Below, piece by piece: positions 10,928 to 60,222 of a stretch of DNA of 64,000 nucleotides. Numbering within the stretch: the stretch's first letter is position 1; the number at the start of each line of letters is the position of its first letter. The notes below the pieces were generated by a model. The model worked only from the letters and a program-made list of their open reading frames with translations, was not told the DNA's origin and searched no databases. Source of the stretch: Chloroflexota bacterium (GTDB lineage: Bacteria; Chloroflexota; Limnocylindria; Limnocylindrales; CSP1-4); contig JAJYLZ010000003.1 in the NCBI GenBank assembly GCA_021787395.1, positions 47,279 through 111,278 of the forward strand. The letters are read 5' to 3'. The position numbers and the translations under genes were made by a program.

Positions 10928-10955
10928 GGCGCCTGGCCGCGCGCGGTCGCCCCGG

Positions 10956-20511: not shown

Positions 20512-20565
20512 CTTGGCGTGCCCTCCCTGGCGGCGGTCGGCCGCGGCGCGGCGGCGCTGGCGGAC

Positions 20566-31638: not shown

Positions 31639-34600
31639 TCACCCCGACCCGGGACCAGAGGCGCCCTCCGCCGCCACCAGCCGCGCCACGACCGCCTGCG
31701 TGAGCGTCCACGACTTGAGCGGCTCGCGCGGCAGCCGGATCCGCACCTGGTTCGAGGCGAACGTCATGTCGCCGGGCCGCACGCCCGGCAGCGGTGCGGC
31801 ACCGCCGGCGGCCCCCGGCGCCAGCAGCTGCATGGCGGTCGCCCGGGAGAGCTGGGCGCCGAACCGGACGACCAGCCAGCCCTCCTCGCGCGCCAGGCTG
31901 GCCACGCCCGCCGACTCCGCCGACAGCCGCAGCTCCGCCACCTCGACCAGCCGCAGCACCGGCTGCGGCATCGGCCCGAACCGGTCGGTGACCTCCTGGC
32001 GGAACGCCGCCACGTCGCCCGTCGTGCGGGCCCGCGCCAGCCGCCGGTAGAGCTCCAGCTTCTGCGCCTCGTCCGGCACGTACGAATCGGGCAGGTGCGC
32101 GTCCACCGGCAGGTCCACGACCGCCTGCGGCACCTCGCGCAGCGGCTCGCGGTGCTCGCGGCGCGCCTTGGCCTCCTCCACCGCCTCGGCCAGCAGGCGC
32201 GTGTAGAGGTCGAAGCCGACCGAGGCCATGAACCCGCTCTGCTCGCCCCCGAGGATGTTCCCCGCCCCGCGGATCTCGAGATCCGCGAGGGCGATCTGGA
32301 ACCCGGCCCCCAGCTCGGACGCGTTGAAGATCGCCTGGAGGCGCTTGCGGGCCTCCTCGCTCATGCGCTCGCGCCGCCGGTACAGGAGGTAGGCGTAGGC
32401 GCGGCGGGACGAGCGTCCGACCCGCCCGCGGAGCTGGTACAGCTGCGCCAGGCCGAGCGCGTCGGCGCGGTCGATGACGATCGTGTTGGCGTTGGGGATG
32501 TCGAGCCCGGACTCGATGATCGTCGTGCACACCAGCACGTCGGCCTCGCCGTCGGCGAACGACAGCATGACCCGCTCCAGCGCGCCCTCGGCCATCTGAC
32601 CGTGGCCGACCACGATCCGCGCGCCCGGCAGGAGCCGCCGCAACTGGTCGGCCTGCGGCTCGATGGTCTCGACCCGGTTGTGGACGTAGAACACCTGGCC
32701 GCCGCGGTCGAGCTCGCGCAGGATCGCGTCCCGGACGAGGCCGGCCGACGCCTCGGCGACCCGCGTCTGGATGGGCAGGCGGTCCTCGGGCGGCGTCTCG
32801 ATGACCGACAGGTCGCGGATGCCCGCCAGGGCCAGGTTGAGCGTCCGCGGGATGGGCGTGGCCGACAGCGTGAGCACGTCCACCGACGCCCGGAGGTGCT
32901 TCAGCCGCTCCTTGGCGGCCACGCCGAAGCGCTGCTCCTCGTCCACCACCACCAGGCCCAGGTCCCGGAACGCCACGTCCTTCGACAGCAGCCGGTGGGT
33001 GCCGATCACGATGTCCACCGTGCCCAGGGACAGCCCGGCGACGGTGGCCTCCTGCTCGCGCGCCGAGACGAACCGCGACAGCAGCTTGACCGTCAGCGGG
33101 AAGGCGGCGAAGCGCTGCGAGAAGGTGGTGAAGTGCTGGCCCGCCAGCACGGTGGTCGGCACCAGCACGGCCACCTGCTTGCCGTCCTGGGTCGCCTTGA
33201 ACGCCGCCCGCAGCGCGACTTCGGTCTTGCCGTAGCCCACGTCGCCCACCACCAGCCGGTCCATCGGCCGGCGCGCCTCCATGTCGGTCTTGACCTCGAC
33301 TGCGGCGCGCAGCTGGTCGGGCGTCTCCTCATACGGGAACGACGCCTCCATCTCGGTCTGCCACGGCGAGTCCGGCGAGTACGCGAACCCCTCGGCCGCC
33401 TCGCGCTTCGCGTACAGGGCGAGCAGCTCGTCGGCCAGGTCGGTGACCGCCTTGCGGACCCGCTGCTTGGTGCGCAGCCAGTCGGTGCCGCCCAGGCGCG
33501 ACAGCGTGGGGCTCTCCCCGCCCGAGTAGCGCGAGACGCGGTTGATCTGCTCGACGGGCACGAAGATGCGGTCGCCGGCCGCGAACGACAGCTCGAGGTA
33601 GTCGCGCTCCTCGCCCGAGCCGCCGCGCCGGAGCATCCGCTCGTAGCGCGCGATGCCGTGGTCGATGTGGACCACCAGGTCGCCGGGCGTGAGGCGCTCG
33701 AGGATGTCGCGCGGGACGATGCGGCGCATCGCCTTGGGCCGGCGGACGCGCACCGAGCCGAACAGCTCGCGGTCCGTGACGACGGCCAGCCCGTCGGGAC
33801 CGCCCGTGAAGCCGCCGTTGAGGCTGCGCTCGACGAGGGCGATGGCGCCGGGCGGCGGGGCGGCCGACACGCGCGAGACGATGCCCACGGCGTGGCCAGC
33901 CTCGCCCAGCAGCTCCGCGAGGCGCGGCGCCTGGTCGGAGGCGAGCACGACGCGCGCCCCCTCCGTCACCCAGTGCTCCACGCCGTCCACGAGGCGTTCC
34001 GTGCGGCCCGGCGGCAGGACGGGCTCGCGCCAGCCGAACAGGTCGCCGCTGGTGAGGCCGCGCGACGCGAACACCATGCCGTCGGCCTCGGACGCGTCCG
34101 ACTGCCAGGTCAGCTCGAGGGTGCGCGCGCCGTGCAGCCTCGACTTCCAGTCGCGGGGCGGCAGGTACGCCGGCGGCCAGTCGCGCGGCAGCTCACCCTG
34201 CTCGACGAGTTCGCGGTGGCGCTCGTCGGCCTGGCGCCACAGGAACTCCGCAGCGTCGGCGAGGTCGCCGGGCTCGTCCAGGACGAGCAGCGTGGTCGGG
34301 TCGAGGTGGTCGAGCGCCGTCGCCGGCGCCACGATGCGCGCCCACACCTCGGCCGCGTCGCCCGCCTGGAGCGCCCGCCCGGCGAGCGACGCGCCGGCCC
34401 CTTCGCTCGTCGATTCCCCGGCGAACCGGGCGAGGTCCAGCGCGAGGCGCTCGGGCAGCCCCCTGGCGAGCCTGCCCAGCCGCGCCCGGAGCTCGTCGGG
34501 CCCGCCCGTGGGCAGCAGCAGCTCGGTCGCGGGCAGCAGCGCCACCTCGCGCACCTCGCCCACGCTCCGCTGATCGGTGGGGTCGAACGAGCGCATCGAG

Positions 34601-35499
34601 TCGATCTCGTCGCCGAACAGCTCGACCCGCACCGGCAGCGCGGCGGACGGCGGGAACACGTCCACGATGCCGCCGCGCCGGGCGAACTCGCCGCGGCCCG
34701 CCACCTCGAGCACCGGCGCGTAGCCCAGGTCGAACAGCTCGGCGAGCAGCGCGTCGAGGCCGACGCGGACACCGGGCCGCAGCACCCGCGTGCGCTCCGG
34801 CAGGTCGGCGGGCGCGATCGTCGCCTGGAGCAGCGCCTGGACGCTCGCGACGAGGATCCTCGCCCGGCCGCTGCGCCACGCCGCCAGGGCCGCCACCCGC
34901 GCTGCCGTCTCGTCGGGGACGAGCTCGGAGCGCTCGTAGGCGAGCGCGGTCCGGGGCTCCAGCACCGCCACGGCGGAGGCGTCGCCCAGCCAGGCGCCCA
35001 GCTCGTCGGCGACGCGGTCACCGATCTCCGCGTCGCGGGCGACCCAGCAGATCCGCTCGCCGTCCTCGGCCAGGGCCAAGGCGGCCGCGAGATACGACTT
35101 CGCGCCGTGCGGCACCGACGTCAGCCCGACGTGGCGGCCGTGGATGCCGGGCGCCGAGCCGCCGCCGAGCCGCTCGAGCAGCGACGCGAACGAGCCCGTC
35201 CCGTGGAGCAGGCGCGGCAGCACGGACAGGTCGGGCAGGCGCCGGCCGGCCCCGCGCGCCGCGGCGTCCGAGCCCGACCTCGTCGCCGGGCGGGAGGGGC
35301 GCCGGCGTGACTGCGCCGCCTCGCCGGCAACCCGTGCCGCGGGGTCGAGCAGCTCCACCTCGGCCTCGGCCGACGCCAGGTCGAGGTCGACCTCGGGCTG
35401 GGCCGCCTCGGATGCGGCGCGGCGCTCGGCCCACTCGCGCGCGACCTTCTCCGCGAGCTTGCGCTCGCGCGTCGACCGGCCGCGGTAGGGGTTGGTCAC
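31639..35499 (-). CDS. mfd: transcription-repair coupling factor
   Basis: Strong Mfd similarity. The D2 domain, RNAP-interaction region, DEAD/DEAH helicase motifs (GDVGYGKTEVALRAAF, VVDEEQRFG, LTLSATPIPRT) and TRG motif are all present. The most upstream start is a GTG at 35499 overlapping the pth TGA, which adds about 100 aa of non-canonical N-terminus. A later start (around 35200) is possible. Confidence 0.9.
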   Translation of the reverse strand: MTNPYRGRSTRERKLAEKVAREWAERRAASEAAQPEVDLDLASAEAEVELLDPAARVAGEAAQSRRRPSRPATRSGSDAAARGAGRRLPDLSVLPRLLHGTGSFASLLERLGGGSAPGIHGRHVGLTSVPHGAKSYLAAALALAEDGERICWVARDAEIGDRVADELGAWLGDASAVAVLEPRTALAYERSELVPDETAARVAALAAWRSGRARILVASVQALLQATIAPADLPERTRVLRPGVRVGLDALLAELFDLGYAPVLEVAGRGEFARRGGIVDVFPPSAALPVRVELFGDEIDSMRSFDPTDQRSVGEVREVALLPATELLLPTGGPDELRARLGRLARGLPERLALDLARFAGESTSEGAGASLAGRALQAGDAAEVWARIVAPATALDHLDPTTLLVLDEPGDLADAAEFLWRQADERHRELVEQGELPRDWPPAYLPPRDWKSRLHGARTLELTWQSDASEADGMVFASRGLTSGDLFGWREPVLPPGRTERLVDGVEHWVTEGARVVLASDQAPRLAELLGEAGHAVGIVSRVSAAPPPGAIALVERSLNGGFTGGPDGLAVVTDRELFGSVRVRRPKAMRRIVPRDILERLTPGDLVVHIDHGIARYERMLRRGGSGEERDYLELSFAAGDRIFVPVEQINRVSRYSGGESPTLSRLGGTDWLRTKQRVRKAVTDLADELLALYAKREAAEGFAYSPDSPWQTEMEASFPYEETPDQLRAAVEVKTDMEARRPMDRLVVGDVGYGKTEVALRAAFKATQDGKQVAVLVPTTVLAGQHFTTFSQRFAAFPLTVKLLSRFVSAREQEATVAGLSLGTVDIVIGTHRLLSKDVAFRDLGLVVVDEEQRFGVAAKERLKHLRASVDVLTLSATPIPRTLNLALAGIRDLSVIETPPEDRLPIQTRVAEASAGLVRDAILRELDRGGQVFYVHNRVETIEPQADQLRRLLPGARIVVGHGQMAEGALERVMLSFADGEADVLVCTTIIESGLDIPNANTIVIDRADALGLAQLYQLRGRVGRSSRRAYAYLLYRRRERMSEEARKRLQAIFNASELGAGFQIALADLEIRGAGNILGGEQSGFMASVGFDLYTRLLAEAVEEAKARREHREPLREVPQAVVDLPVDAHLPDSYVPDEAQKLELYRRLARARTTGDVAAFRQEVTDRFGPMPQPVLRLVEVAELRLSAESAGVASLAREEGWLVVRFGAQLSRATAMQLLAPGAAGGAAPLPGVRPGDMTFASNQVRIRLPREPLKSWTLTQAVVARLVAAEGASGPGSG

Positions 35500-36215
35500 C
35501 GGCGGTCGCTCGGGCCCGACCCGCCGTCGCCGGGCAGGATCCGCCGCCAGCCGGTCCGGGTTCGACGCACCCCGCTCTCGTCGGCGGGCCCGCCGGGCTC
35601 GCCCGGGGCAGGCGCTGCCGGCCCGGCCGCAGGGCCGCCCGGGCTGCACTGCAGGTCGAACGCGTTGAAGCGGTTCGCGGCCTTGCTGGTCCCCTCGCGT
35701 GCCCACGCCTCCACCGCCTCGGCGGCGGCGTCGAGCAGGATGGGCAGGCAGGCGCGCTCGTCGACGGCGAACCGCGAGAGCACGTGGTCGATCGCGCCGC
35801 GCCCGGGCTCGCCGATCCCCACCCGCAGCCGGCTGAACTTCTCCGAGCCCAGCTCGTCGATGATCGAGCGCAGCCCGTTGTGGCCGCCGTGGCTGCCGGC
35901 CTCGCGGAAGCGCAGCTTGCCGAACGGCAGCGCGAAGTCGTCGGCCACCACCAGCACGTCCACCATCGGCACGTGGCTGCGGGCCATCAGCTTGCGGACC
36001 GCGATGCCCGAGTCGTTCATGTACGTGAGCGGCTTGGCGAGGATCAGGTCCATCCCCTTCCAGCGCAGCTCGAGCACCTCCGAGGCGTCGCGCTGACGCC
36101 CGCGGCCCGATCGACCGGCGCGGTCGGCGATCCGGTCGAGCACCATCCAGCCGACGTTGTGGCGCGTCTCCAAGTACTGGCCGCCCGGGTTCCCCAGGCC
36201 CACCACGAGCTTCAC
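35496..36215 (-). CDS. pth: peptidyl-tRNA hydrolase
   Basis: Pth motifs (VVGLGNPGGQYLETRHNVG, HGGHNGLRS). GTG start at 36215. The upstream 91 aa of the ORF is filler. The stop overlaps the mfd start. Confidence 0.85.
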   Translation of the reverse strand: MKLVVGLGNPGGQYLETRHNVGWMVLDRIADRAGRSGRGRQRDASEVLELRWKGMDLILAKPLTYMNDSGIAVRKLMARSHVPMVDVLVVADDFALPFGKLRFREAGSHGGHNGLRSIIDELGSEKFSRLRVGIGEPGRGAIDHVLSRFAVDERACLPILLDAAAEAVEAWAREGTSKAANRFNAFDLQCSPGGPAAGPAAPAPGEPGGPADESGVRRTRTGWRRILPGDGGSGPSDRR

Positions 36216-36378
36216 GATGCGGCGCGTTCTCCCTAGAAGCACGGCGAATGGCCCCGGGACCGCGTCCGACGGGGCTGCGTCGCCATGGTACCGCCCGGGC
36301 GCGAACGCCCTCGGCGGTGCGGTCGGGCGGGTCGCGCCGCTGCGGAAGGGGCGCCCCGCGGGAGGTGCCGCGCCGCCG

Positions 36379-36565
36379 GGTGTTCCGCGCCACCGCCGCC
36401 GGCGGTGGCACGCGCGACCTGCGCGGGGGCCCCTCCGTGGCACCGCCGCCGGCGGTGGTATGCGCGACCTCGGCGGGGCGGCGTGCACGGCTTCTGCCCG
36501 TGATACCGCTGCCGGCGGTGCCGCGACCCGGATCGATCGTCAGCACCGCCGGCGGCGGTGCCACG
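36379..36565. repeat. array of about 4 GC-rich palindromic repeat units with core CACCGCCGCCGGCGGTG
   Basis: Seen directly: units at about 36379-36428 and 36430-36482 (near-identical, about 52-nt period), plus degenerate copies at about 36499-36531 and 36541-36565. They lie between the SPFH 3' end and the pth promoter. Confidence 0.5.
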
Positions 36566-36624: not shown

Positions 36625-37785
36625 TCACGACGCCGCGCCCGGATGGCCGACGGCGGCCGCACTGCCCGTGCCGGGGCCGGCCGGTGCCGGTGTCGCCGCC
36701 CGGACGTGGCGCCCCAGCACCTCGAACAGCGGCTCCAGCTGCCCGAGCAGCCTGCCGTCGTCCCCGTAGACCGACAGGTTCGCCCCCTGGAGCACCTTCG
36801 AGGCGGACTCCACGATCCGCGGCGCCTGCTCGATGGGCAGGATCTCGCGGCGCATCTCCTGCTCGGCGCGCTGCTGCATCAGGTCGCGCTCCACCTCGAG
36901 CGTCCGGATGCGCGTCTCGAGCTCGCGCAGCTCGACCTCGCGAGCCAGCGCCTCGCGCTCCTGCTCGATCCGGGCGAGCCGGACCGGCTTCTCAGCCGCC
37001 AGTCGAGCCTCCTCGGCGGCCATCTCGGCGCGGAACCGCTCCTGCTCAAGGCCGATCGCATGCTGGGCGGTCGCCACGTCCTCGGCCGCCTTGCGCCGGT
37101 CGCGCGCCACCCTGGCCGTCGCCAGCTCCTCCTCGCGCCGCAGGTCCTCGCGATCCTTCGCCAGCTGGCGCTCGTCGACGCGCGTCTGCGACGCCATCTG
37201 GGCGAGCTGGGTCTCCTCGCCCGTCCGGATGTTCGACTGCTCCGCCTTGAGGCGGATGTCGTTGCGCGTCTCGGCCTCCAGCTGCGCGCGGAGGGCCGTG
37301 TCCACGATGAACACCTGGGCGACCTGGGCCGCCTCGATCACGATCCCCCACCCTTCGCCGCCCTCGCCTCCCGCCACCGCGGTGCCGAGCGCCCGGGCGG
37401 CCACGCCCGTGAGCGTGGTCTTGCGGTTCTCGATGCACTCCTCCATCGTGAGGTGCGAGACCGCGTCCCGGAGCTCGCCCAGCAGGATGTGCGTCAGCAG
37501 GTCCGTCGCCTGCGCCACGCCCGCGTCGATGTTCCAGAAGTCGAAGTGGCGGGCCGCGGTGATGGGGTCGGTCACCCGGAACACGAAGATCCCCTTGAAG
37601 CGCAGCGGGATCCCGTCCCTGGTCTCCTGGGTGAACTCGAACGCCGCCTCCACCTTGGTGCTCGGCACTCGGATGTAGATGGAGCCCGGGCGGAGCCACG
37701 TCTGGATCGCCGTGCCCTTGTTCTCGAGCCTCCCGCCCTTGCCCACCAGCAGGAATTCGCCTGATCCCGCCTTCACGAACGGCAT
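36625..37785 (-). CDS. SPFH/band-7 family protein (flotillin-like) with a long C-terminal coiled coil
   Basis: SPFH core at the N-terminus. An E/R/A-rich heptad region (EAETRNDIRLKAEQ...EVELRELETRIRTLEVERDL) is typical of flotillin/YqiK. Confidence 0.8.
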   Translation of the reverse strand: MPFVKAGSGEFLLVGKGGRLENKGTAIQTWLRPGSIYIRVPSTKVEAAFEFTQETRDGIPLRFKGIFVFRVTDPITAARHFDFWNIDAGVAQATDLLTHILLGELRDAVSHLTMEECIENRKTTLTGVAARALGTAVAGGEGGEGWGIVIEAAQVAQVFIVDTALRAQLEAETRNDIRLKAEQSNIRTGEETQLAQMASQTRVDERQLAKDREDLRREEELATARVARDRRKAAEDVATAQHAIGLEQERFRAEMAAEEARLAAEKPVRLARIEQEREALAREVELRELETRIRTLEVERDLMQQRAEQEMRREILPIEQAPRIVESASKVLQGANLSVYGDDGRLLGQLEPLFEVLGRHVRAATPAPAGPGTGSAAAVGHPGAAS

Positions 37786-38318
37786 GTCGCGTCACACCCC
37801 ACGCTGTCGGCCCGCTGACGGGAGCGCGGCCCGCCTGGGCCGCGCTCTCCCGGTCGAGCGCAGCCTGAGCCGGGTGTCGGGCGGATGGTCGGCCGGGCAC
37901 TGACCGACGACCCCCGACAACGGGCGCCCCCCTGTTGGAACCCGCCGCCAACCCGTCAGGGACCTCAGGAGGGGCGGCCGGTCACAGGCCGATCGTGGCC
38001 CTGAGCGGCCGTGTCGTCTCCCATACGGAAGTCCGGGCTCCCGCGTCCGGAGACGGCGCGGAGGGCCGCCGTCAGACCGAGAGCCTCGGCGCTTCACGAT
38101 TCCGCACAGGACTTCCGGAGCAGCCCGAGCCGGCGATCCGTCCGGACCCATCGCGGCCGCTTCGTCCCCGGCGAAGACGACGGACGACACGTGTGCCAGT
38201 CACGCGCGACGGCTTGAATGCGCCGAGAGGCGGCTGTCACGGGCGCCCGGGTCAAGGCGTCTCAGTCGCGGCCGCCCAAGACGGTCCCGTCACGGACCGG
38301 CGGCCGGGAGCGGGTGCG

Positions 38319-41300
38319 ATGGGAGGGGTCCACGGTCGGCGTCCCCTGCGCTGGAGTCCGCGATCCGGGGCGCCGAGTCGCCTCGCCGGAGCGGTCGCAG
38401 CGCTGCTGCTGATCGTCGGGTGCGCCGGGCCCGCGCCCGCCGTTCCGCCAGTCGCATCCTGGACGCCGGTGCCCTCATCAGGCGCCGCGCCTGCGGCGAC
38501 GCCGGCCGAGGCATCGACCTCCGGGCCAGCACCGACCGGCCAGCCCGCCGGCAACGAAGCCTGGGCGCCCGTCCAACCCGCCGGCCTGCCGCAGGCCGCG
38601 ACGCTCGTCCCGACCCGGGGCGGTGCCGACGTCGTGGCGCGGACCACCGGGTTCCTGCTCACCAGCCTCGACGGGCGGCCGGCCGCGTCCCTCGCCGGAC
38701 GCATCGTGGCCGACCCGCCGGTGGCATTCCGCGTCACGCCCTCGGGCGCGGCCGCCGCGGTCCTCCAGCCCACGGCCGTTCTCGCGGCCGCCACGCGCTA
38801 CCACCTGTCGCTGACGCGGCCCGACGGCACGGTCGAGGCCTCGTGGACCGCGCTGACGGCCGGCCCGCTGCACGTCAGCGACACCGTCCCCGGCGACCAG
38901 GCCACGTCGGTGCCGCTCGACACCGGGATCGAGGTCAACTTCGACCAGCCCGGCGTGACGGCGTCCGCGCTCGCGTCGCACTTCCGGATCTCGCCCGCGG
39001 TAAAGGGTCACTTCGAGGCGGACGGCCGCTCCGTCGCCTTCGCGCCGGACAAGCCGCTCGCGAAGGCGACGCTGTACACGGTGACGATCACCCGTGGCCT
39101 GCCGATCGCGGGGACGGGCGAGGCGCTGGAGCAGGACGTCACCATCCGGTTCGAGACCGCGGCAGCGCGCCCGTGGACCGCCCGTGTCTGGCTGCCCGAG
39201 ACCCTGGTGGACGCCACCCCGCGCGAGCTGGCGGCGATGACGCTGTGGTGGGACGTGCAGGGGAGCTCGTCCCGACCGACCAGTGTCCCGCTGCGCGTCC
39301 ACCGCCTGGGCAGCCTCGACGGCGCGATCAGCGCATGGGCCGCGATCTCCAGGGCACCGGCCTGGACGTTGGCCAGCACGCAGGCCGCGGTGGCCACCTC
39401 GAGCCTGCCGCAGGTGCTGTCGGCCAGCGTGCCGATCCAGGGGCTGGACGACGGGACCCCCTGGATCCAGCTGCCGCGGACGCTCGCGGCCGGCTGGTAT
39501 GTGGTGACCGTGGCGTTCGCCGGCGTCCCCCGCCAGCTGGTCCTGCAGGTCACCGACACCGCGACCTACGCCCTGGTCACCTCGACCCAGACCGCGGTCT
39601 GGGTCAACGACCTGAAGACGCGCGGCCCGGCCATGGGCGCGACCGCATCGCTGGCCGGGACGGTCCTGGCCGGCGCAACCGACGCCCGGGGGCTGCTGGT
39701 GGCCGCGTCGCCGCCTGCGGTCGCCGGCGGCGACGCAACCGATCCGATGCTCCTGGTGCACTACGGCGGCTCCACGACCTTCCGGCCGGTCGCCGGCGGC
39801 TCGATGTGCGGCGGCTGCGACGGCACCTGGTCCCCTCGCGACAGCCTCGTGCCCGACACCTGGTGGACGATGCTCACCACCGACCGCTGGGAGTACCGCC
39901 AGACGGACACGGTCAACGCCGTGGGCGTGGTCAGGCAGCGCGTGTCCGGGACTGTGCCGGCGTCCGTGCTGCTCGAGCTGGTCCGCAACGACGGCGCCGA
40001 CGCCGTCACCATCCTCACCCGGACGGCAACGCCGGATGCGCGGGGGATGTACTCGGCGTCGCTGCAGATCGCCGGGCTGCCCGTCGGCGGCTATCGCCTC
40101 CGCGCGAGCGTGGACGGCGCCAGCGTCGGCGAGACGTGGCTCAGCGTCGCGACCATCCGCAAGCCGGCGTACCTCATCACGGTCATGCCCGAGCGCCACG
40201 CGGTGATCAGCGGCCAGCCGCTGCAGGCGACGGTCAGCGCCGCGTTCTTCGACGGGACCCCAGCCGCCGGCACGCAGGTCCAGTTGACGACCGAAGACAG
40301 CGAGGCGCCCCAGACGACGGTCACCACGGATGCGGGCGGCCTCGCCACGGGCACCCTGAAGCCGAAGGCAGCCGACATGCAGCAGCGTGTCGCGACCATC
40401 GGCGCCACGCCCACGCTGCCTGAGGAGGCCGGCCTCGCGGCCAACAACTTCGTGGCCGTGTTCGCCGGCTCCGCCTTCCTGTCCCTGGACGGCAGCGCCA
40501 ACGGCAAGACGCTGACCGTCACGGGCGGCGTGAACACGGTCGACTGGGGACGCTACGACCAGCCGGACGTCGACCTCTGGTCGATCGACCCGCGCGGCGC
40601 GGCGCGCCCCGGGGCAGCCGTGCAGATCAAGGTCGTCGCGCGGTCCATGGTCCAGCGCCAGACGGGCACCGCCTACGACTTCATCACCAAGCGCGTCATG
40701 CCCCGCTACGAGTACACCGACAACGAGGTTGCGCTCGCATCCCGGAGCGTCCGGACCGGCGCTGACGGGACCTTCCGCCTGACGCTCCCAGCCGGCCGCA
40801 ACGCCTACGCCTACTCGGTGACGGCCACGTACGTGGATGAGGCCGGGCGCAGGATCGAGACGGAGGCGTGGATCAGCGGCACGGCGCCACGCGCCGACTA
40901 CCCGATCCCGTCGCTCGACCCGGCTGAAGGGCACGACTACGCCCATGGGTACTCGGTCGGCGACACGGTCCGCGTGCGCTTCAGCGGCGGCGCCCCCCGC
41001 ACCACCGCCACCCGCTACCTCTACCTCGCGCTCCAGCAGGGGCTGCGCGGCGCCGACGTCAGCTCCAGCGCGGAGTTCCAGACGACCTTCACCGACGCGA
41101 GCATCCCCGACATCGCGATCACCGCGGTCCGGTTCAACGGCTCCGGCTACGACGCCGTGCCGTGGCCCTACACCGCCCGGCTCGACCAGCAGGACCGGCA
41201 GCTGACCGTCACCATGGCCGCCGACAAGCTGCGCTACGAGCCGGGGGAGTCCGCCACGGTGTCCGTGTCGACAGCCGACCGGGACGGCCGGCCCGTGGCC

Positions 41301-43370
41301 GCCAGCGTGTTCGTCCGCGCCGTGGACGAGAAGCTGTTCGCGATGGGCGCCGCCGCCGAGGGCGACCCGCTGGCCCAGCTGTACGCCGACGTCCCCACCG
41401 GCGTCGTGGGCAGCGTGCGGTCGCACCAGCCGCCGGAGCAGGGATGGGGCGGCGGGAGGGGCGACACCACCGGCGGCGGCGGGACCGGCGGCCGGACCGA
41501 CTTCCGCGACTGGCTGGTGGCCAAGGTGGTGCACACCGACGCGGCGGGTCGGGCCACGGTGACCGTCCCCCTGTCTGATGACCTCACCTCGTGGCGAGTC
41601 GCGGCCACCGCGGTCGACGGCGCCCTCGACGCCGGCGCCGCCTCGATCAAGATCCCGGTCGGGCTGCCGTTCTTCGTGGACGCGGTGCTGGCGTCGGAGT
41701 ACCTCGCCAGCGACCGGCCGGTCCTGCGCGTCCGATCCTACGGGACAGCGCTCCGGGCGGGCGACCGGGTGGCCTTCGCGGTCACCTCCGACACGCTGCC
41801 GATGGCCGAGGTCACGGTCACCGCGGACGCGTTCGGCTCCGCCTACGTGCCGCTCCCGGCGCTGGCCGTGGGCACCCAGCGCGTCCGGATCGCCGGCAGC
41901 GTCGTCGCGAGCGACCAGACGCTCCAGGATGCGATGACGCGCACGTTCACGGTCATCGCCAGCCGGGCGACCCAGCAGCGCACCACCTGGTCCCTGCTGG
42001 CCGGCCCGACGACCGTGCAGGCCGGGCAGGGCATGACGCGGCTGGCGCTCGTGGACTCGGGCCGCGGGCGCGTGGTGCCCGTGCTCGAGGAGCTCGCCGC
42101 GTCCGGAGCGGCGCGGGCCGACCAGGTGCTGGCGTCCGGGCTCGCCACGCGCGTCCTGGCCCACCAGTTCGGCCTCGCGCCGGCCACCACGAGCGACCCT
42201 AACGCGCTCGACACGTTCACCTCGAACGGCGGCCTGTCCATCGTGCCCTGGGGCGCGATGCAGCTCGACGTCACCGCCCTCGCCGCCATGACCGGCGACC
42301 CGCGTCTCGCCATGGGCGATATCCGTGAACGCCTCCGGATGGCGCTCGACGACGACGCCCAGCCGCGCGCTGGGCGCATCCTGGCGCTGGCGGGCCTTGC
42401 AGCGCTCGGCGAGCCGGTCCACGGCGACATCAGCACGCTCGACGCCGCGACCGACCTCACCGTCGAGGAGCGCGCCGACCTTGCGCTGGCCGCCCTCGAG
42501 GCCGGCGACGAGGCCCTGGCCGGCCGTCTTGAGCAGCAGCTGCTGGCGTCGAACGCCCTCCGCTCGGCGAACATGGTCCGGATCGATCCGGGGCCCGGCA
42601 CGGACACCACCGTTGTCACGGCCCGCCTGGCCATCGTGGCGGCCTCGCTGGGCGACCCGATTGCGGCCGAGATGGACGAGTACCTCGCCGCCAATCCGCC
42701 CAAGACCACGCTGGTGGTCCTCGAGCGCGCGCTCGCGGCGCGCGGCTGGGCGATGCGTGTGGCCAGCTCGACCGCCCGGGCGACGCTCACCGTCGACGGC
42801 GTGCGGACGGCCGTCAGCCTGTCGGGCGGCGACGCGGCCGGGTACATGCTCACCCCGGCCCAGGCACGGTCGGCGTCGGTCGCGCCGGTCGCCGGCTCGC
42901 TGCTCCTGGTCCAGACGTGGGACGGCGCTCTCGAGCCGTCCAGCCTGGCCGCTCCGAACGGCATCACCTTCACGCGCGACGTGTCCCCCGCCGGCGTGAT
43001 CCCCGGCGACCGAACCGTCGTCGTGACCTTCCACGTGTCGATCCCGCCGACCCTGCGCGCCAGCGGCTGGCGGATCGTCGACGTGGCGCCGTCGGGCCTC
43101 GCGCCAGTGCTCTACTGCGGCGCCTGGGCTGACCCCCAGCAGCCGGCCGGCGTGATCTCGCCGGACTCCATCGACGGGCAGCGCGTGGAGCTGATGGTCG
43201 GCTGGGACCCCCGACGGTCGGAGTACTGGGCCAGGTACGTGGCGCACGTCGTCTCGCCCGGCTCGTACACGTGGGAGCCGTCGGTGCTGCAGTCGCTGGT
43301 CGATCCGGCTTCGGGGCTGACCGTGCCGGCGACGACCGTGACGATCTCCACCCCCGTGCCGGGCGGCTGA
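38319..43370 (+). CDS. alpha-2-macroglobulin family lipoprotein (about 1683 aa) with no thioester motif
   Basis: ATG at 38319 with a GGGAG RBS gives MGGVHGRRPL...LAGAVAALLLIVGCAG (lipobox). There is an SbsA-Ig-like N-terminal domain, repeated MG-like beta domains, and the hallmark A2M motif (RTDFRDWLVAKVVHTDAAGRATVTVPLSDDLTSWRVAATAV). An alpha/alpha-toroid TED-like region is present with no CxEQ. The upstream 128 aa of the ORF is filler. Confidence 0.8.
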   Translation: MGGVHGRRPLRWSPRSGAPSRLAGAVAALLLIVGCAGPAPAVPPVASWTPVPSSGAAPAATPAEASTSGPAPTGQPAGNEAWAPVQPAGLPQAATLVPTRGGADVVARTTGFLLTSLDGRPAASLAGRIVADPPVAFRVTPSGAAAAVLQPTAVLAAATRYHLSLTRPDGTVEASWTALTAGPLHVSDTVPGDQATSVPLDTGIEVNFDQPGVTASALASHFRISPAVKGHFEADGRSVAFAPDKPLAKATLYTVTITRGLPIAGTGEALEQDVTIRFETAAARPWTARVWLPETLVDATPRELAAMTLWWDVQGSSSRPTSVPLRVHRLGSLDGAISAWAAISRAPAWTLASTQAAVATSSLPQVLSASVPIQGLDDGTPWIQLPRTLAAGWYVVTVAFAGVPRQLVLQVTDTATYALVTSTQTAVWVNDLKTRGPAMGATASLAGTVLAGATDARGLLVAASPPAVAGGDATDPMLLVHYGGSTTFRPVAGGSMCGGCDGTWSPRDSLVPDTWWTMLTTDRWEYRQTDTVNAVGVVRQRVSGTVPASVLLELVRNDGADAVTILTRTATPDARGMYSASLQIAGLPVGGYRLRASVDGASVGETWLSVATIRKPAYLITVMPERHAVISGQPLQATVSAAFFDGTPAAGTQVQLTTEDSEAPQTTVTTDAGGLATGTLKPKAADMQQRVATIGATPTLPEEAGLAANNFVAVFAGSAFLSLDGSANGKTLTVTGGVNTVDWGRYDQPDVDLWSIDPRGAARPGAAVQIKVVARSMVQRQTGTAYDFITKRVMPRYEYTDNEVALASRSVRTGADGTFRLTLPAGRNAYAYSVTATYVDEAGRRIETEAWISGTAPRADYPIPSLDPAEGHDYAHGYSVGDTVRVRFSGGAPRTTATRYLYLALQQGLRGADVSSSAEFQTTFTDASIPDIAITAVRFNGSGYDAVPWPYTARLDQQDRQLTVTMAADKLRYEPGESATVSVSTADRDGRPVAASVFVRAVDEKLFAMGAAAEGDPLAQLYADVPTGVVGSVRSHQPPEQGWGGGRGDTTGGGGTGGRTDFRDWLVAKVVHTDAAGRATVTVPLSDDLTSWRVAATAVDGALDAGAASIKIPVGLPFFVDAVLASEYLASDRPVLRVRSYGTALRAGDRVAFAVTSDTLPMAEVTVTADAFGSAYVPLPALAVGTQRVRIAGSVVASDQTLQDAMTRTFTVIASRATQQRTTWSLLAGPTTVQAGQGMTRLALVDSGRGRVVPVLEELAASGAARADQVLASGLATRVLAHQFGLAPATTSDPNALDTFTSNGGLSIVPWGAMQLDVTALAAMTGDPRLAMGDIRERLRMALDDDAQPRAGRILALAGLAALGEPVHGDISTLDAATDLTVEERADLALAALEAGDEALAGRLEQQLLASNALRSANMVRIDPGPGTDTTVVTARLAIVAASLGDPIAAEMDEYLAANPPKTTLVVLERALAARGWAMRVASSTARATLTVDGVRTAVSLSGGDAAGYMLTPAQARSASVAPVAGSLLLVQTWDGALEPSSLAAPNGITFTRDVSPAGVIPGDRTVVVTFHVSIPPTLRASGWRIVDVAPSGLAPVLYCGAWADPQQPAGVISPDSIDGQRVELMVGWDPRRSEYWARYVAHVVSPGSYTWEPSVLQSLVDPASGLTVPATTVTISTPVPGG

Positions 43371-43381
43371 GGGCGCGCGGC

Positions 43382-43939
43382 TCAGGCCAGGAGGCGGCGC
43401 TCCAGGTCGCGCATCGCCGCCTCCTCGACCGGGTCGGCGTGGTCCCAGCCGCACACGTGCAGCGCGCCGTGGGTGACCAGCAGCCGCAGCTCGTCGCGGG
43501 CGTCCCACCGCACGTCGCCGGTCTGGCCGCCGCGGCCGGCCCCGGCCTGGTCGACCGCACGCTCCACCGACACCACGATGTCGCCCAGGTGAGGGCGGGC
43601 GCCGGGCGGAAGGGCGAAGCCGTCGGGGTCGGCATCCGGCGTCGGCAAGCCGCCTGAGCCCTTGCCCGGATGGTCGGGGTACTCGTCCGGGCCAAGCAGC
43701 GGGAAGGACAGCACGTCGGTGGGGCCGTCCTTGCCCATGTGCGCCGCGTTGAGCTCGGCGAGCTCGGCGTCGTCGGACAGGATCAGCCCGATCGAGGCTG
43801 GACGCGGCGCCCCGGCCGCGTCCAGCGCCGCGGCGACGGCCCGGGCCAGGGCGGCGGCGGGCAGCAGGCGCGGCACTCCCTCGCGCCGCTCGACGTCGAC
43901 CCGCCAGCCGGACAGGTAGTGGGTGCTCATGGCCGACAC
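43382..43939 (-). CDS. ybeY: rRNA maturation endoribonuclease YbeY
   Basis: HGALHVCGWDH zinc motif (HxxxHxxxxDH) and UPF0054-like length. Confidence 0.85.
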   Translation of the reverse strand: MSAMSTHYLSGWRVDVERREGVPRLLPAAALARAVAAALDAAGAPRPASIGLILSDDAELAELNAAHMGKDGPTDVLSFPLLGPDEYPDHPGKGSGGLPTPDADPDGFALPPGARPHLGDIVVSVERAVDQAGAGRGGQTGDVRWDARDELRLLVTHGALHVCGWDHADPVEEAAMRDLERRLLA

Positions 43940-44876: not shown

Positions 44877-46973
44877 CTACTTGGTGACCCTGAGGCTCAC
44901 GCTCGTCGAGTGGCTGAGGCCGCCGCTGACACCGGTGATGGTCAGGGTGTAGGTCCTGGTCTTCGTGCCCGTCGAGGTCTGGACCGTCATCGTCGTGCTC
45001 GACCCCGCCGATACCGGGCTAGCGCTGAACGTGGCCGTCACGCCCGAGGGCAGGCCGGACACGCTGAGCGATACGCTGCCGTTGAAGCCGCTGAGGGAGC
45101 CGACGCTGACGGTGTAGATGACGGAGCCCCCGCGCTTCACGGACTGCGAGGTCGGACTGGCCGACAGCGAGAAGTCGGGGACGGTCACGGTGACGCTCGC
45201 CGTGCCGGACACGCCACCTGACGACGCGGTCACCGTGAAGGTGCCCGCCGTGCTGCCCGCCGTGAACAGGCCGGAAGAGCTGATCGACCCGCCGCCGCTC
45301 ACCGACCAGGTGAACGTGGGCTGCGGGCTCATCAGGCTGCCGTTCTGGTCATATCCGGTCGCGGTGAACTGCTGGGTCCCGCCGGCCGCAACCGACGCGC
45401 TCGCGGGCGACACGGTGATCGAGGTGGGCGTCTGCGAGTCAGGCGCGGTCACCGTGACCTGGGCCGTTCCAGCGATCCCGCCGCCGGCCGCGGTCACGGT
45501 GTACGGGCCGCCGGCCGTGGTGCCGCTGAACAGGCCGGTCTGGTCGATCGACCCGCCGCCGCTGACCGACCAGGTGAACGCCGGCTGCGAGGTCATCGGC
45601 ACGCCGTTCTGGTCAAGCGCGGTCGCCGAGAACTGCTGCGCGCCGCCGACCGCAACGGAGGCGCTCGTCGGGGAGACCGAGATGGTGGTCAGGACCGGGG
45701 CCGAAGACGCGGAGGCGATGCTGCCGAGGCCGGTGGGGCCGTCCCAGCCGGGGCCGGCAGTGCACAGGACCGAGGTCCGGCAGCGACCGTTAGAACCGGA
45801 CGTGACGTCGTAGTACTTGGCCGCGGTCCATGCGTACTGGCTGGCCGTGGGATACGAGGTGTTAGGGCCATAGCCGCCCTGCATCGTGTACAGGGCGCCC
45901 ATCAGCGGCGACGACAGGCTCGTGCCGCCGAAGATGTACCAGCCGGTGGCGTTGTTGTAGGTGGTGTAGATCTGGAGGCCGGAGTTCGGGTCGGCGTCCG
46001 CGGAGAGGTCCGCAATCGCCTTCCTGGTGCCGCACGGACTGCCGCTGATCACCTGCCACGACGGGGCCGCGTTGTAGGACGAGCAGCCGCTGCCCGATCC
46101 GGACCAGGCCGTCTCCGAGGAACGGACGCCGGTCGCGTCCACCTGGACGTTGGTGCCGCCCACGCCGAGCACATACGTGCCCGTGGCCGGGAACCCGACG
46201 CCGTAGCCGCCGTCGCCGGTGGAGGCCATCACCGCGATGCCCTTCTTGGCCGCGTTGTCCCACTGCGGGTAGCTCGAGCCCGGGGCATCGCCGTTCGAGC
46301 TGTAGCTGTTGGAGATGGCGCGGACGCCGCCCACGGTCGATGCGAACGTCACCGCGGTGCCGAGGTCGGCGAACGAGGCGGAGTTGGCCTCGACGAGCAG
46401 GATGCTGCAGTCGGGGCAGACCGCCGAGGCGGCCTGAAGGTCGAGGTCGATCTCAGTGGCCCAGCCCGAGTCGGCGGTCGGGTAGGAGCTGCCGCCGGTC
46501 TGGTTCACCTTGGCGAAGCACGGGCCCGGCCCGCTGGTGAGCTTGGACAGCGAACTCGAGCAGTCGGCCATGGCCGGCATCAGCGTCGAGTCGCTGCTGC
46601 GATACGTGGACAGGTGGCTGTAGGCGTTCGGGTTGTCGAATGCGTCAACGATGGCGATGACCTTGGAGGGGTCGCCGACGCCTGTGATCCCGTAGGCCGT
46701 GCGGATGCCGACTGCCGTGTACGAGACCGACGCCGCCGGCTTGGCGATGCGGCCGAAGTCCTGGGGGGACCTGGCGACGTACGGCAGGCCGTCCTGGAAG
46801 AGCATGCGGGCCACGCTGTCGCAGGCGGCGGTGTCGGCCGTGCCGGGCGGGCACACCCGAGCGTCGCGGTGGCTCCACGTGGGCGCGGCGGCGGTCGCCG
46901 TCGACGCGATCAGGCCGGACATCAACAGCAGGGCGGCCGCGGCCGCCGTGACCCTACGAACCGCCGAGTGCAT
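44877..46973 (-). CDS. secreted S53 (sedolisin-like) or S8-like serine peptidase with C-terminal tandem Big_2 Ig-like domains
   Basis: Signal peptide MHSAVRRVTAAAAALLLMSGLIASTATA. GGTSLSSPLMGA serine motif with an upstream AIVDAFDNP. Three repeats of about 80 aa each (TVSPTSASVAVGGAQQFSATALDQNG...) typical of Big_2. The alternative start is 47030. Confidence 0.75.
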   Translation of the reverse strand: MHSAVRRVTAAAAALLLMSGLIASTATAAAPTWSHRDARVCPPGTADTAACDSVARMLFQDGLPYVARSPQDFGRIAKPAASVSYTAVGIRTAYGITGVGDPSKVIAIVDAFDNPNAYSHLSTYRSSDSTLMPAMADCSSSLSKLTSGPGPCFAKVNQTGGSSYPTADSGWATEIDLDLQAASAVCPDCSILLVEANSASFADLGTAVTFASTVGGVRAISNSYSSNGDAPGSSYPQWDNAAKKGIAVMASTGDGGYGVGFPATGTYVLGVGGTNVQVDATGVRSSETAWSGSGSGCSSYNAAPSWQVISGSPCGTRKAIADLSADADPNSGLQIYTTYNNATGWYIFGGTSLSSPLMGALYTMQGGYGPNTSYPTASQYAWTAAKYYDVTSGSNGRCRTSVLCTAGPGWDGPTGLGSIASASSAPVLTTISVSPTSASVAVGGAQQFSATALDQNGVPMTSQPAFTWSVSGGGSIDQTGLFSGTTAGGPYTVTAAGGGIAGTAQVTVTAPDSQTPTSITVSPASASVAAGGTQQFTATGYDQNGSLMSPQPTFTWSVSGGGSISSSGLFTAGSTAGTFTVTASSGGVSGTASVTVTVPDFSLSASPTSQSVKRGGSVIYTVSVGSLSGFNGSVSLSVSGLPSGVTATFSASPVSAGSSTTMTVQTSTGTKTRTYTLTITGVSGGLSHSTSVSLRVTK

Positions 46974-47131
46974 CGCCACCGCCTCAGATCCGAGTTCGGC
47001 GCACGCTGGCGCAGGCGCCGGGGTGCTCATCGTGGAGGGTACGCCGTCACGCGGTCAACAGGAGGGCCATCCGGCCGTTGCCCGGCGTCACCGAGGAGCG
47101 TGGCGAAGGGTCGGTGCGGGACGACTGCCCG

Positions 47132-56202: not shown

Positions 56203-59200
56203 TCACGTACCGGGGGCGGACGGGGCCAGCGGCACCTCGGCGACCTGCCGCACCCCGAGCCCGGCCAGCGCCGCCGCGGCGGCGGCCTCGTCCTTCGGCG
56301 ACGGCGTCCGGCCCTCGCTGCGGTCGAGGCGGGCGATCGCCGTCATGGTCAGGGCCCGCTGGAGGAGGTCGTCCCGCTCACGAGCGGCCGCGAGGCTCCG
56401 CTCGAGCGCCGCCCGGGCCCCGACGGGATCGCCGGTCTGGGCGAGCGCGTAGCCGCGCACCCGCTCCAGCTGCGGGAGGATCGGCCCGACCTCGTCCGTG
56501 CCGCGGCCCAGGGCCAGGACTTCGTCCACGATCCCGAGCGCCCGCCGCCCGTCGCCCATCAGGACGCGGCACTCGGCCCGGCGCGCCTCGTTGAGCGCGA
56601 GCTCCGCGCTGGCGCCGACGTGGACCCACTCGGTGCGCGCGTCATCGAACATCAACAGCGCCTCGTCGAAGCGCCCGGTCCGGGCCAGGAGGAGGGCGAG
56701 CACGCTCAGCGACGGCCCGACGCCCCAGCGGAGCCCGGCCGACCGGGCGACGCGCAGCGCATCGCGGAGCAGCGCCTCCGCCTCCTCGTAGGCGCCCTGC
56801 TCGTTGCGCAGCTCGGCCATGTTGGCCGCGGCGACTGAAGCAAGCGCGTAGTTGCCGATCCGGAGCAGCAGCTCCCGGGACTGGTCCGCGTAGCCGAGGG
56901 CCTCGTCCCAGCTGCCCGCGTAGAAGGCCCCCATGCCCAGGTTGCTCAGGACCAGCGCCTGGCCCGCGAGGTCACCGAGGTCCCGGTAGATCTCGAGGGC
57001 GCGGGTCCACGCGTCGCCGGTCGCCTCGCCCCGCTGGAGGCGAGCCCAGTCGAGGGCGTTGTAGGCTCGGGCCACGGCCTCGGGGGCGACGGCCCTCTCC
57101 CCCTCCGCGATCGCCTGCTCGGCCCACGCGACCGCCTCGTTCGGCCGGCCCTCGGCCTGCAGGAGCGTCGCCGTCCAGGCGGCCTGGTCGGCGCGCTCCC
57201 GGGCCGCCTCGATGCCGTCCACCCCCTCGAGCGCCTGCCTCGCCCGGGTCGCCCAGCGCAGCGCCCCCGAGAACCTGCCGAGCTTCTCCTCGATCCGGGA
57301 CCGCTTCAGCAGCAGCCGGGCCCGGGCCAGCGCGTCGTCGCCCGTCAGCCTGCGCACGAGGTCGAGCGCATCGCCCGCGTCCCGGAAGTCGCCGGCCCAG
57401 TAGAGGGCGTCGGCGCGCGCCTCCGCCACGGCCGCCATCTCGGCGGCCGGCACGCTCCGGGATGCCCGCGCCGCCGCGAGGGCCCGCCCGTACAGGGTCG
57501 CCGCCTCGGTGTTCGCGAACACGCGGGCAGCCCGCTCGCCGGCGGCGCGCGCGTAGCGCCACGCCCGCGCGTGGTCGCCGCCCAGCGCGAAGTGGAGGCT
57601 CAGGAGGCCGGCGAGCTCGTCCGGCTCGGCCGCCTCGCGCTCCAGGCGCGAGCCGACGGCGGCGTGGAGCCGCTGGCGCAGCCGGAACGGCAGGCCGGCG
57701 TAGGCGGCGTCCCGGACGATCGCCTGCCGGAAGCGGAGGTAGCCGCCCGCCTCGGGCTCGAGGAGCTCGGCCAGGCGCTCCCAGGTGCCCTCGGTGGGCT
57801 GGGGCGTCGCCTCGTCGAGCACGTCCGGCAGGAGGCGGGGGTGGAACGCGAGGCCGAACACGGACACGCGCCGGACGAGCTGGCGGTCGCGCGGGGCCAG
57901 GGCGTCGATCCGGACGGTCGCCGCCGCCTCGACCGAGTCGGGGAGCGAGCCGTCGCCCACCCTGGCGGCGTGGATCAGGTCGAGCAGGAGCTGCGGGTTG
58001 CCGGCCGACCGCTCGATCGTCTCGACCAGGACCCGCTCCGGCAGCGGCGCCTCGTCGGTGGCGGCGGCGGCCAAGGCCCGAGCGGCCGGCGGGGTCAGCG
58101 GGGCCAGGTCGAGGGTCTGCACCCCGGGCGCCTCGGGCGGCGCCGAGCCCGCGCCCTCGGGTCGCCGCAGCGCCAGCACGAGCCACGGCCGATCGTCCCG
58201 GGCGTCGGCGGCAAGCGCCCGGAGGAGGTCGACGGACGCCTCGTCCATGAGGTGCGCGTTGTCGAATGCGAACAGCGTCGGGCGGTCCAGGAGCGCGCGG
58301 AGCAGGTCCGCGACCGCCTGGTGCAGCCGCGGGCGGCGGTACTCGGGGGCGAGGGCCGCGACCTCGGGGGTGGCCTCCGCCTCGGCGCCCGCGGCGGCCG
58401 CGAGCAGCGGCACCCACGGGAGGAGGTCGGGGTCGAGCGCCTCGACCAGCTCGGCGAGCCGCTCGGCGACCGCCGGCGCCGGGGCGTCCCGCTCGACGCC
58501 GACGGCCTCGCGCAAGGCGTCCCGCCACGCCGCGTACGGGGTCGTCGAGGTGAACGCCTCGCCGGTGGCGCCGAGGACCCTGAAGTCCGGTGCGCGCTTG
58601 AGCACCTCGTCGAGGAGCCGCGTCTTGCCGAGCCCAGCCTCGCCCTGCAGCACGATCGCCTGGCGCCGGCCGGACCGCGCCGCGTCGAGGGCGTCCGCCA
58701 GCAGCCGCAGCTCCGCGTCGCGGCCCGTGAGCGGGAGGTCCTGGGCCGCCGTCCGCCTCGGCCGCCCGATGCGCGGCCCGACGGCCCAGGCGTGGACCGG
58801 CCGGGCCTTGCCCTTGACCAGGAACGGCTCGAGCTCGGCGGTCTCGAAGCGCGTCGCCGAGCCCTCGAGGACCGCGGCCGTCGCGAGGACCTGGCCCGGG
58901 GCCGCCCTGGCCATCAGCCGCGCGGCGAGGTTGACCGGGTCGCCCATGACCGTGTACGTCCGCCGGTACGGCGGGCCCACGTCGCCCGAGAACACGGGGC
59001 CGCGGTTGACGCCGACGCGGACCGGCAGCCGGCGCTCGCCCTCGGCGATGCGGCGGAGCGCCAGCAGCATCCGCTCCTCGTCGTCCCCCAGCATCCGGGG
59101 CACACCGGCGGTCAGGATGAGCTTGCCGCCGTCGGCGTCCACGTCCGAGGCCAGGAAGCACACGCCGTGCTCGTCGGCGGCCGCCTGGACGTCGCGCACG

Positions 59201-59982: not shown

Positions 59983-60222
59983 CCGCGGCAGGTACGGGAT
60001 CAGCCCGCTTCCCCTCGACGCGGGGGAGCCCACCGGGGGCACCAGCTGCTCGTCCACCCGCGGATCATAACGACAGGTTCGGATCGGGCGATGGAGCGAC
60101 GGCTTCCGCCGCGAGGCGACGTGCAGCACAATCCGTGCAGCCACCGCGCCCGGCCCGTATCCTGCGGCCCGAGGTCTGAGCGGTAGGTGGCTGGCGTCCC
60201 GGCCAGCTGTTGGAGGGTCGGC

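Follow-up and report, generated by a model that had tools for sequence, protein, structure and literature searches.

The 64,000-nucleotide stretch analysed here (the window; contig JAJYLZ010000003.1 of the Chloroflexota assembly GCA_021787395.1, positions 47,279 to 111,278) contains a long open reading frame (ORF) on the + strand, at 38319..43370, which an initial annotation had described as a lipoprotein of the alpha-2-macroglobulin (A2M) type lacking the thioester. The question raised by this locus is whether the product is a macroglobulin at all, to which of the known types it would belong and what it might do for the cell. Bacterial A2Ms have been described as Gram-negative proteins of two types: a thioester and pairing with PBP1c characterise Type I, and Type II lacks the thioester and is encoded in a mag/yfa operon. 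The predicted fold of both halves places the product in the A2M superfamily; according to the alignments, the thioester Cys is replaced by an Arg conserved in its family. It fits neither of the described types, failing on the thioester and pbpC of Type I and on the operon of Type II. The reading preferred here, at a probability of about 0.5, is that of a lipid-anchored, stress-induced trap that would hold proteases non-covalently at the outer surface of the cytoplasmic membrane.

Pfam, NCBIfam, phmmer against the PDB, a 28-sequence family profile, hhalign, AlphaFold2 and Foldseek were applied to the product. Pfam identified Big_5 (E=1.2e-14), A2M_BRD (E=1e-8) and A2M at its cut-off, with MG2, MG4 and bMG3 below threshold. 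No Pfam model of the thioester domain (TED) or of the receptor domain was matched in the product, its NCBIfam search gave no meaningful match, and single-sequence phmmer against the PDB gave only marginal matches to TEP1. The family profile retrieved ECAM/YfhM and the Salmonella A2M from the PDB (4e-21 to 2e-19) in four colinear blocks, and hhalign against a YfhM-led profile paired residues 189-1677 with YfhM 68-1651 (probability 100, E=2.6e-74). The AlphaFold2 models of residues 36-870 and 860-1683 had predicted local distance difference test (pLDDT) values of 88 and 89, respectively, and consist of all-beta domains plus a single helical domain (residues ~1249-1480). Foldseek against the PDB placed ECAM first for each half: at 9e-36 for the C-terminal half, in an alignment spanning nearly the whole model, and at 6e-24 (5a42) for the N-terminal half, where SaA2M (4u48) was also found. 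A2ML1, CD109, TEP1 and complement C3/C5 came after ECAM and SaA2M. The A2M assignment of the initial annotation is therefore borne out by profile searches, by structure prediction and by the structural comparison of both halves.

The domains follow the macroglobulin (MG) order from end to end. The family profile aligns the MG run of the product with ECAM residues 153-486. Between the bait-region domain and MG7 lies a Gly-rich, disordered, bait-like loop (residues 1033-1057; pLDDT <50 at model residues 174-198), which the same profile aligns with the ECAM segment RFGGDGDELKRGG preceding MG7. The MG7 domain carries the hallmark FRDW...LSDDLTSWRV, and in the 28-sequence family alignment D1064, D1087 and T1090 are invariant. 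The helical domain comprises 11 helices with pLDDT >90, and hhalign pairs this region with the TED of YfhM. Beyond it, residues 1508-1677 are aligned with ECAM 1416-1606 by the family profile and form beta strands in the model.

The thioester is missing from this otherwise complete arrangement. Four Cys are present in the product (residues 35, 497, 500 and 1600), none of them within the helical domain, and CxEQ is absent from all 91 family proteins (the product and 90 relatives), two of which contain no Cys at all. In the hhalign alignment G-A-A-R1266-A-D-Q falls under Y-P-Y-G-C1187-L-E-Q of YfhM. Among 73 family proteins aligned with hmmalign, Arg occupies the Cys column in ~69, mostly as R-x-D/E-Q; as a control, YPYGCVEQTMS of a Caldilineaceae A2M (locus L087) was placed in the same columns as R-A-D-Q. 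In the 28-sequence alignment R1266 and D1246 never vary and D1268 hardly does, D1246 being part of a D-[AS]-G-R-G-R motif (D1246-S-G-R-G-R in the product) ~20 residues upstream of R1266. The product thus shows both sequence features of the thioester-less A2M-like clade of monoderm lineages delimited here, R-x-D/E-(Q) in the thioester columns and D-[AS]-G-R-G-R. The lack of CxEQ reported initially is confirmed, and the comparison with YfhM, proposed then as a check for a cryptic motif, revealed none. A CLEQ in a Clostridiales homologue (L063) was considered as a cryptic thioester and rejected as a chance match, since it lies outside the aligned site; the CxEQ of L086 and L087 is a property of classical A2Ms and not of the family.

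The loss of the thioester, the Big_5 Ig-like domains and long stalk that resemble surface proteins, and a housekeeping neighbourhood devoid of inhibitor-related partners would all suit an Ig/MG lipoprotein acting as a surface scaffold, an adhesin or a cell-wall spacer, in which trapping was lost together with the thioester. Such a role is nevertheless decidedly unlikely. The complete A2M domain order, needless for a mere spacer, is kept at full length in relatives of 27-64% identity; the invariant residues cluster near the former thioester site (D1246, R1266 and D1268); and the top Foldseek matches are bacterial A2Ms and not adhesins, as a large adhesin with spurious A2M similarity, the initial caveat, would hardly give.

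Among the known macroglobulins, Type I (ECAM/YfhM and SaA2M; 5a42, 4ziq and 4u48) is the best structural and profile match for both halves. The domain order from MG to the MG8-like domain, the N-terminal lipoprotein anchor and the flexible bait segment before MG7 are shared with it. Unlike Type I, the product has R-A-D-Q in place of CxEQ, no adjoining pbpC/PBP1c (pbpC adjoins yfhM in the E. coli reference layout) and an extra N-terminal stalk and Ig-like domain, and the identity is only ~16%. The hosts of Type I are diderm, whereas the window lineage is single-membraned by general knowledge.

Type II (MagD of P. aeruginosa, YfaS of E. coli) shares with the product the absence of the thioester and the retention of the bait region. 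The thioester-less MagD of Pseudomonas traps protease non-covalently after bait cleavage (PMC5764988). The hidden Markov model (HMM) of the family scored 123 bits against the K-12 YfaS pseudogene product versus 77 bits against YfhM, which would place the family slightly closer to Type II and distant from both types. These scores and the lack of CxEQ in both YfaS and the product are what would be expected of a Type II member whose partner genes lie elsewhere in the genome and which takes part in a Mag-like complex, a proposal that is highly improbable on several counts. Genes for DUF2135, DUF2300, DUF1175 and DUF2138 are absent from the scanned window ORFs, are not annotated in any of the nine context loci with gene tables and do not emerge as common neighbours when the ORFs around 85 loci are clustered, so that the product has none of the partners of the six-gene mag/yfa operon (yfaP-Q-S-T-A in the E. 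coli reference layout). The partners that do recur in relatives are Memo-like and extracytoplasmic function (ECF) sigma genes; the anchor is a lipobox rather than a MagB-dependent membrane association; and Type II is described as Gram-negative, which the hosts of this family are not.

Two further groups are more remote. The eukaryotic TEPs (A2M, A2ML1, CD109, insect TEP1 and C3/C4/C5) have the same fold, with Foldseek values of 1e-28 to 1e-31 for the C-terminal half, and C5, like the product, lacks the thioester, a loss tolerated in the A2M superfamily (C5, MagD). Unlike them, at 11-14% identity, the product has no anaphylatoxin or C345C domains, carries a lipid anchor and is bacterial. The second group comprises thioester-bearing multi-Big_5 A2Ms of Chloroflexota and Patescibacteria (P0092, P0094, P0097 and P0098), from the same phyla and likewise with N-terminal Big_5 and a Gly-rich segment before MG7. 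They are longer (~1900-2100 aa), keep CxEQ, match the TED model PF07678 and align with only 8-17% of the query (E 1e-14 to 1e-10). In the literature, coverage of which was incomplete, no description was found of A2M homologues in these lineages or in Gram-positive bacteria, nor of associations of macroglobulins with anti-sigma factors, ECF sigma factors or Memo.

The product starts with MGGVHGRRPLRWSPRSGAPSRLAGAVAALLLIVGC, in which a positively charged n-region is followed by a hydrophobic core and by a lipobox whose Cys is residue 35. The N-terminal lipobox reported initially is thus present; its pattern also matches the N-termini of most of the closer, Limnocylindria-type relatives, more distant ones having one N-terminal membrane helix in its place. 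Residues 1-52 of the N-terminal model have pLDDT <50, so the stalk is predicted to be disordered. From these features the product is a putative lipobox-anchored protein with a stalk of ~50 residues. A periplasmic location had been suggested initially. It is doubtful, as Chloroflexota, Bacillota and Patescibacteria, the lineages of the relatives, are generally held to be single-membraned and devoid of an outer membrane; the outer face of the cytoplasmic membrane is therefore a more apt designation.

The reading frame is genuine and encodes, by translation, 1683 aa. The G+C content of the window is 75%, and long ORFs are therefore found on either strand; an equally long antisense ORF (38478-43508) gives an Arg/Gly-rich junk translation and was dismissed as non-coding. 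G+C at third codon positions (GC3) lies between 0.89 and 0.96 over 38319-43367, against 0.71 in the in-frame extension upstream. A longer N-terminus from a TTG at 37935 was dropped because of that lower GC3 and of a conserved promoter-like block inside the extension. The ATG at 38319 and the GGGAG Shine-Dalgarno sequence are kept in five related loci, whose alignment also shows conservation of the block CCGGGAGCGGGAGCGATGGG around the latter. The long ORF of the initial annotation is thus real.

The non-coding gap of about 530 bp noted initially upstream of the gene is 533 bp long. It had been thought to hold a regulatory RNA or a long leader, which the results do not favour: Rfam on 37600-38500 gave only a chance-level miRNA match, a scan of the leader for sigma-70 promoters and terminators found nothing, and in the five-locus alignment conservation is limited to the ~100 nt nearest the ATG, which contain an ECF-type promoter motif and the ribosome-binding site. 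The distal ~430 nt are confined to loci with an inserted SPFH gene (the window, L091 and L092), where their conservation is patchy; they therefore more probably serve that divergent gene. Among the syntenic loci the SPFH gene is present in these three only and is an insertion relative to most of them, which accounts for the long gap. The distal region folds on the + strand better than all shuffles (z=-3.2), and a near-perfect GC-rich palindrome (GGGAGCGCGGCCCGCC/TGGGCCGCGCTCTCCC) is found at 37820-37852, 35-65 nt upstream of the SPFH start. An RNA element there was rejected, the main hairpin not being clearly conserved in L091 or L092 and having no Rfam match beyond the chance-level miRNA one.

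ECF sigma promoters have '..AAC' at -35 and 'CGT' at -10. The motif TGTCAC-N17-CGTC is found at -82 to -84 in the window, L003, L005, L090, L091 and L092, with the variants TGTAAC in L006, GGTAAC in L004 and TGAAAC in L007. Its significance comes from this conserved position and not from rarity, TGWMAC-N17-CGTC having a single match in the 64-kb window. Related motifs (CGTAAC-N16/17-CGTTAAT) are carried by sigma-headed operons of Peptococcaceae and Clostridia. As judged from this conservation, transcription probably starts at the ECF-sigma-type promoter; if the motif is indeed the promoter, the 5' untranslated region would be ~50 nt, and this putative short leader folds no better than shuffles (z=-0.3). 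In L092, from a close relative of the window, a second A2M-like paralogue (10516-13037, +) lies just downstream of def and is preceded by its own TGTAAC-N17-CGTC at 10218.

The gene had initially been described as stand-alone; far from being an oddity of the window, it belongs to a conserved family and, within its lineage, has a fixed housekeeping position. A phmmer search with residues 1130-1683 gave 897 cluster representatives at E<=1e-3, of which 219 reached E<=1e-30, and the family extends over hundreds of 50%-identity clusters, including metagenome-assembled genomes (MAGs) of class Clostridia and of Peptococcaceae. The best 80 loci from species-representative genomes belong to Chloroflexota (Limnocylindria, Dehalococcoidia and Thermomicrobiales), Bacillota (Clostridia, Peptococcaceae, Tepidanaerobacter, Dehalobacter and Oscillospiraceae) and Patescibacteria, plus one odd 'Verrucomicrobiia' MAG contig; one Actinomycetota MAG protein was identified among the protein matches. 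Database names are uninformative ('hypothetical', 'Ig-like domain-containing' and a COG-style 'YfaS'). Limnocylindria-type Chloroflexota with relatives of 64, 60, 59, 48, 42 and 34% identity share the order pth-mfd / A2M-like / ybeY-pgpH-yqeY-rpsU, with one related locus at 36% departing from it. That the gene has stayed in place by vertical descent, even at 34% identity, speaks for a function that has been maintained. The Limnocylindria MAG JBGPMJ01 has two paralogues on separate contigs (L014 and L023).

Partner genes were sought by clustering the ORFs that flank 85 loci, and two kinds recur. The first is a Memo-like gene (PF01875) for an extracytoplasmic protein, found immediately downstream on the same strand in 38 of the 85 and translationally coupled, with a typical overlap of 4 nt. 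These loci are mostly of Bacillota, Patescibacteria and Dehalococcoidia, with one of Limnocylindria, and the gene is present neither in the window nor in the syntenic Limnocylindria loci. Two of three tested proteins matched PF01875 at E 1e-26 to 1e-28 and the third at 6e-13; they have their own signal or anchor. The second is an ECF sigma gene that immediately precedes the A2M-like gene in the same orientation, often overlapping it, in 13 loci (including L031, L015, L038, L040, L043, L044, L068, L070, L076, L078, L081 and L083). Where the sigma gene lies upstream, a cytoplasmic extension and a single transmembrane helix are present at the N-terminus of the A2M-like protein. For the anti-sigma zinc finger zf-HC2, L031 exceeds the Pfam cut-off and L015 narrowly misses it, and no Pfam anti-sigma model was matched in the N-terminal extensions of Bacillota members. 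The fused relatives have the appearance of anti-sigma factors whose ectodomain is A2M-like. Homologous ECF sigma genes are also found 4-5 kb downstream, just past rpsU, in the syntenic L004, L005 and L049. The window protein has no cytoplasmic N-terminus, and its gene is preceded by the conserved ECF-type motif.

This association raises the main alternative, that the A2M-like ectodomain is a switch into ECF signalling, triggered by cleavage or by a ligand. The relatives would themselves be the anti-sigma factors, and the window lipoprotein would be a co-sensor or a decoy modulating a separate one. The 13 sigma-headed loci, the cytoplasmic extension and transmembrane helix encoded there, the zf-HC2 matches, the conserved Gly-rich loop and the ECF-type motif upstream of the window gene are all consistent with it. 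This nevertheless seems rather unlikely, as the window protein has a lipobox only and, without a cytoplasmic domain, cannot itself bind a sigma factor; moreover, no sigma or anti-sigma gene is located within the window, and the Bacillota extensions match no Pfam anti-sigma model. A broader proposal, tentative and also on the improbable side, is that the family is a protease-sensing module wired to ECF sigma factors, its lipoprotein paralogues, that of the window included, being effector traps transcribed from the same ECF-type promoter. In the fused forms, where an ECF sigma gene is followed by a gene for the anti-sigma N-terminus, transmembrane helix and A2M-like ectodomain and then by a Memo-like gene, an extracellular protease would cut the Gly-rich bait loop and so trigger the A2M-type conformational change. 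Regulated proteolysis could then act on the exposed anti-sigma factor, and the sigma factor would be released. If true, this would be a third bacterial A2M class, specific to single-membrane bacteria, with 'bait cleavage' as a new anti-sigma input; sensing of proteolysis by the fused forms would be a new and directly testable signal input for ECF sigma factors. More surprising than the window gene itself are these family-level links to ECF sigma genes, to anti-sigma N-termini and to Memo-like genes.

A separate observation concerns the bait position. In P0088 and P0091, which belong to the family, and in the thioester-bearing P0094, the Gly-rich bait loop is the precise insertion site of a Hint/intein-type domain, with boundaries ...GAEKG|CFLEGT...VFVHN|EEKGGGG.... 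As in bacterial intein-like (BIL) domains, the ...HN end is followed by E, A or Q and not by Cys, Ser or Thr, which points to self-cleavage of the bait and not to splicing.

The preferred reading, a protease trap, would operate as follows. The lipidated product would be tethered by its flexible stalk of ~50 residues to the outer leaflet of the membrane of a Limnocylindria-type Chloroflexota cell, where an endopeptidase acting at the surface would cut the bait loop 1033-1057. The cut would induce the A2M-type conformational change, and the protease would be held non-covalently, as it is by MagD. Trapping would shield membrane and cell-wall proteins, and transcription from the conserved ECF-sigma-type promoter would place the trap within an envelope-stress regulon. 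Speaking for it are the A2M fold and domain order, the conserved Arg in place of the thioester Cys, the disordered loop at the canonical bait position, the lipobox with its stalk, the upkeep of the gene at one locus, the precedent of MagD, the ECF links and a secreted sedolisin gene 1.5 kb away in the window and in L003. If this reading is true, macroglobulin protection of the envelope is not confined to the periplasm. Of the protease trap suggested initially, the thioester-less, lipobox-anchored A2M fold stands; trapping itself, in this as in any other member of the family, is inferred from homology, and the target proteases, the ECF dependence and the cellular location are likewise inferences.

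Several points weigh against this reading. Bait regions are normally hypervariable, and the loop GDTTGGGG is unusually conserved among Chloroflexota members of the 28-sequence alignment, which may point to self-processing or to a specific partner instead of a broad bait. The fusion of the ectodomain to anti-sigma-like N-termini in relatives suggests sensing rather than inhibition. As for stress induction, the 64-kb window contains no ECF sigma gene, its single motif match could be within chance, and no ECF-type motif was found ahead of the L004, L005 and L049 sigma genes. As for the location, the single membrane of the host is taken from general knowledge of Chloroflexota and not from the window DNA.

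Table. Features of the A2M-like gene, its surroundings and partner genes in relatives (window coordinates unless a locus is named).
Feature	Coordinates	Strand	Basis or remark
SPFH/Band_7 gene	36625-37785	-	upstream neighbour
ECF-sigma-type promoter-like motif TGTCAC-N17-CGTC	38235..38261	+	84 nt upstream of ATG
Shine-Dalgarno GGGAG	38306..38310	+	8 nt before ATG, read from sequence
Predicted signal peptide and lipobox, residues 1-35, L-I-V-G-C35	38319..38423	+	translation
Pro/Ala/Thr-rich disordered tether, residues 36-87	38424..38579	+	model and composition
Two N-terminal Ig-like domains, residues ~94-280	38598..39158	+	second is Pfam Big_5 (183-280); modelled beta-sandwich strands
MG beta-sandwich run, residues ~288-860	39180..40898	+	Pfam bMG3, MG2, MG4; model pLDDT 88
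Bait-region domain A2M_BRD, residues 877-1009	40947..41345	+	Pfam PF07703, E=1e-8
Gly-rich disordered bait-like loop SHQPPEQGWGGGRGDTTGGGGTGGR, residues 1033-1057	41415..41489	+	model
A2M/MG7 domain, residues 1062-1122	41502..41684	+	PF00207, 21.2 bits against a cut-off of 21
Helical thioester-domain homologue without thioester, residues ~1249-1480	42063..42758	+	model, Foldseek, hhalign
R1266-A-D1268-Q in the thioester C-x-E-Q columns	42114..42125	+	hhalign, hmmalign
C-terminal beta domains: rest of CUB-like and MG8/receptor-binding-like, stop codon	42759..43370	+	profile, model
ybeY	43382-43939	-	11 bp from the A2M-like gene
def		+	next to ybeY
Kumamolisin-like S53 sedolisin with Big_2 domains, secreted	44877-47030	-	PDB 1zvj, E=3e-19
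pgpH, yqeY, rpsU		-	beyond the sedolisin gene
pth, mfd		-	beyond the SPFH gene
S9 peptidase	18535-20565	-	window ORF scan
Memo-like gene, L038	10704-11615		example in a relative
Memo-like gene, L022	5444-6367		example in a relative
Memo-like gene, L076	11250-12125		example in a relative

The arrangement of the flanking genes makes the A2M-like gene monocistronic. Among the ORFs scanned, the neighbours are those given initially (SPFH and ybeY, with nothing of the pbpC or yfa kind): no transglycosylase/PBP genes were identified among them, and the other scanned ORFs of the window are mostly housekeeping or metabolic. A mechanical ORF of 1641 aa (31639-36564, -) is not one gene: by the gene calls of the source contig, it comprises mfd (31639-35499) and overlaps with a separate pth (35496-36215).

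The window had also been described as rich in proteases. The sedolisin, the S9 peptidase and an alpha/beta hydrolase gene are indeed present, but the metzincin-like gene and the M23 fragment were not found among the scanned window ORFs, and only the sedolisin gene is close to the A2M-like gene (1.5 kb) and partly syntenic, with a similar gene at the same place in L003. It encodes two Big_2 and further Ig-like domains, of which Pfam detects the Big_2 part only. L090 has a possible counterpart of 613 aa with no Pfam match. At 1e-4, Pfam gave no match for the long ORFs of coding-like length at 11799-15041, two on the - strand (429 and 633 aa) and one on the + strand (372 aa); the metzincin-like gene may fall within this segment. 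Finally, a large adenylate/guanylate cyclase-AAA_16-TPR regulator (56203-60267, -) adjoins a major facilitator superfamily (MFS) transporter fused to a cyclic-nucleotide-binding domain (60187-62043, +), and the two could form a signalling pair based on cyclic nucleotides.

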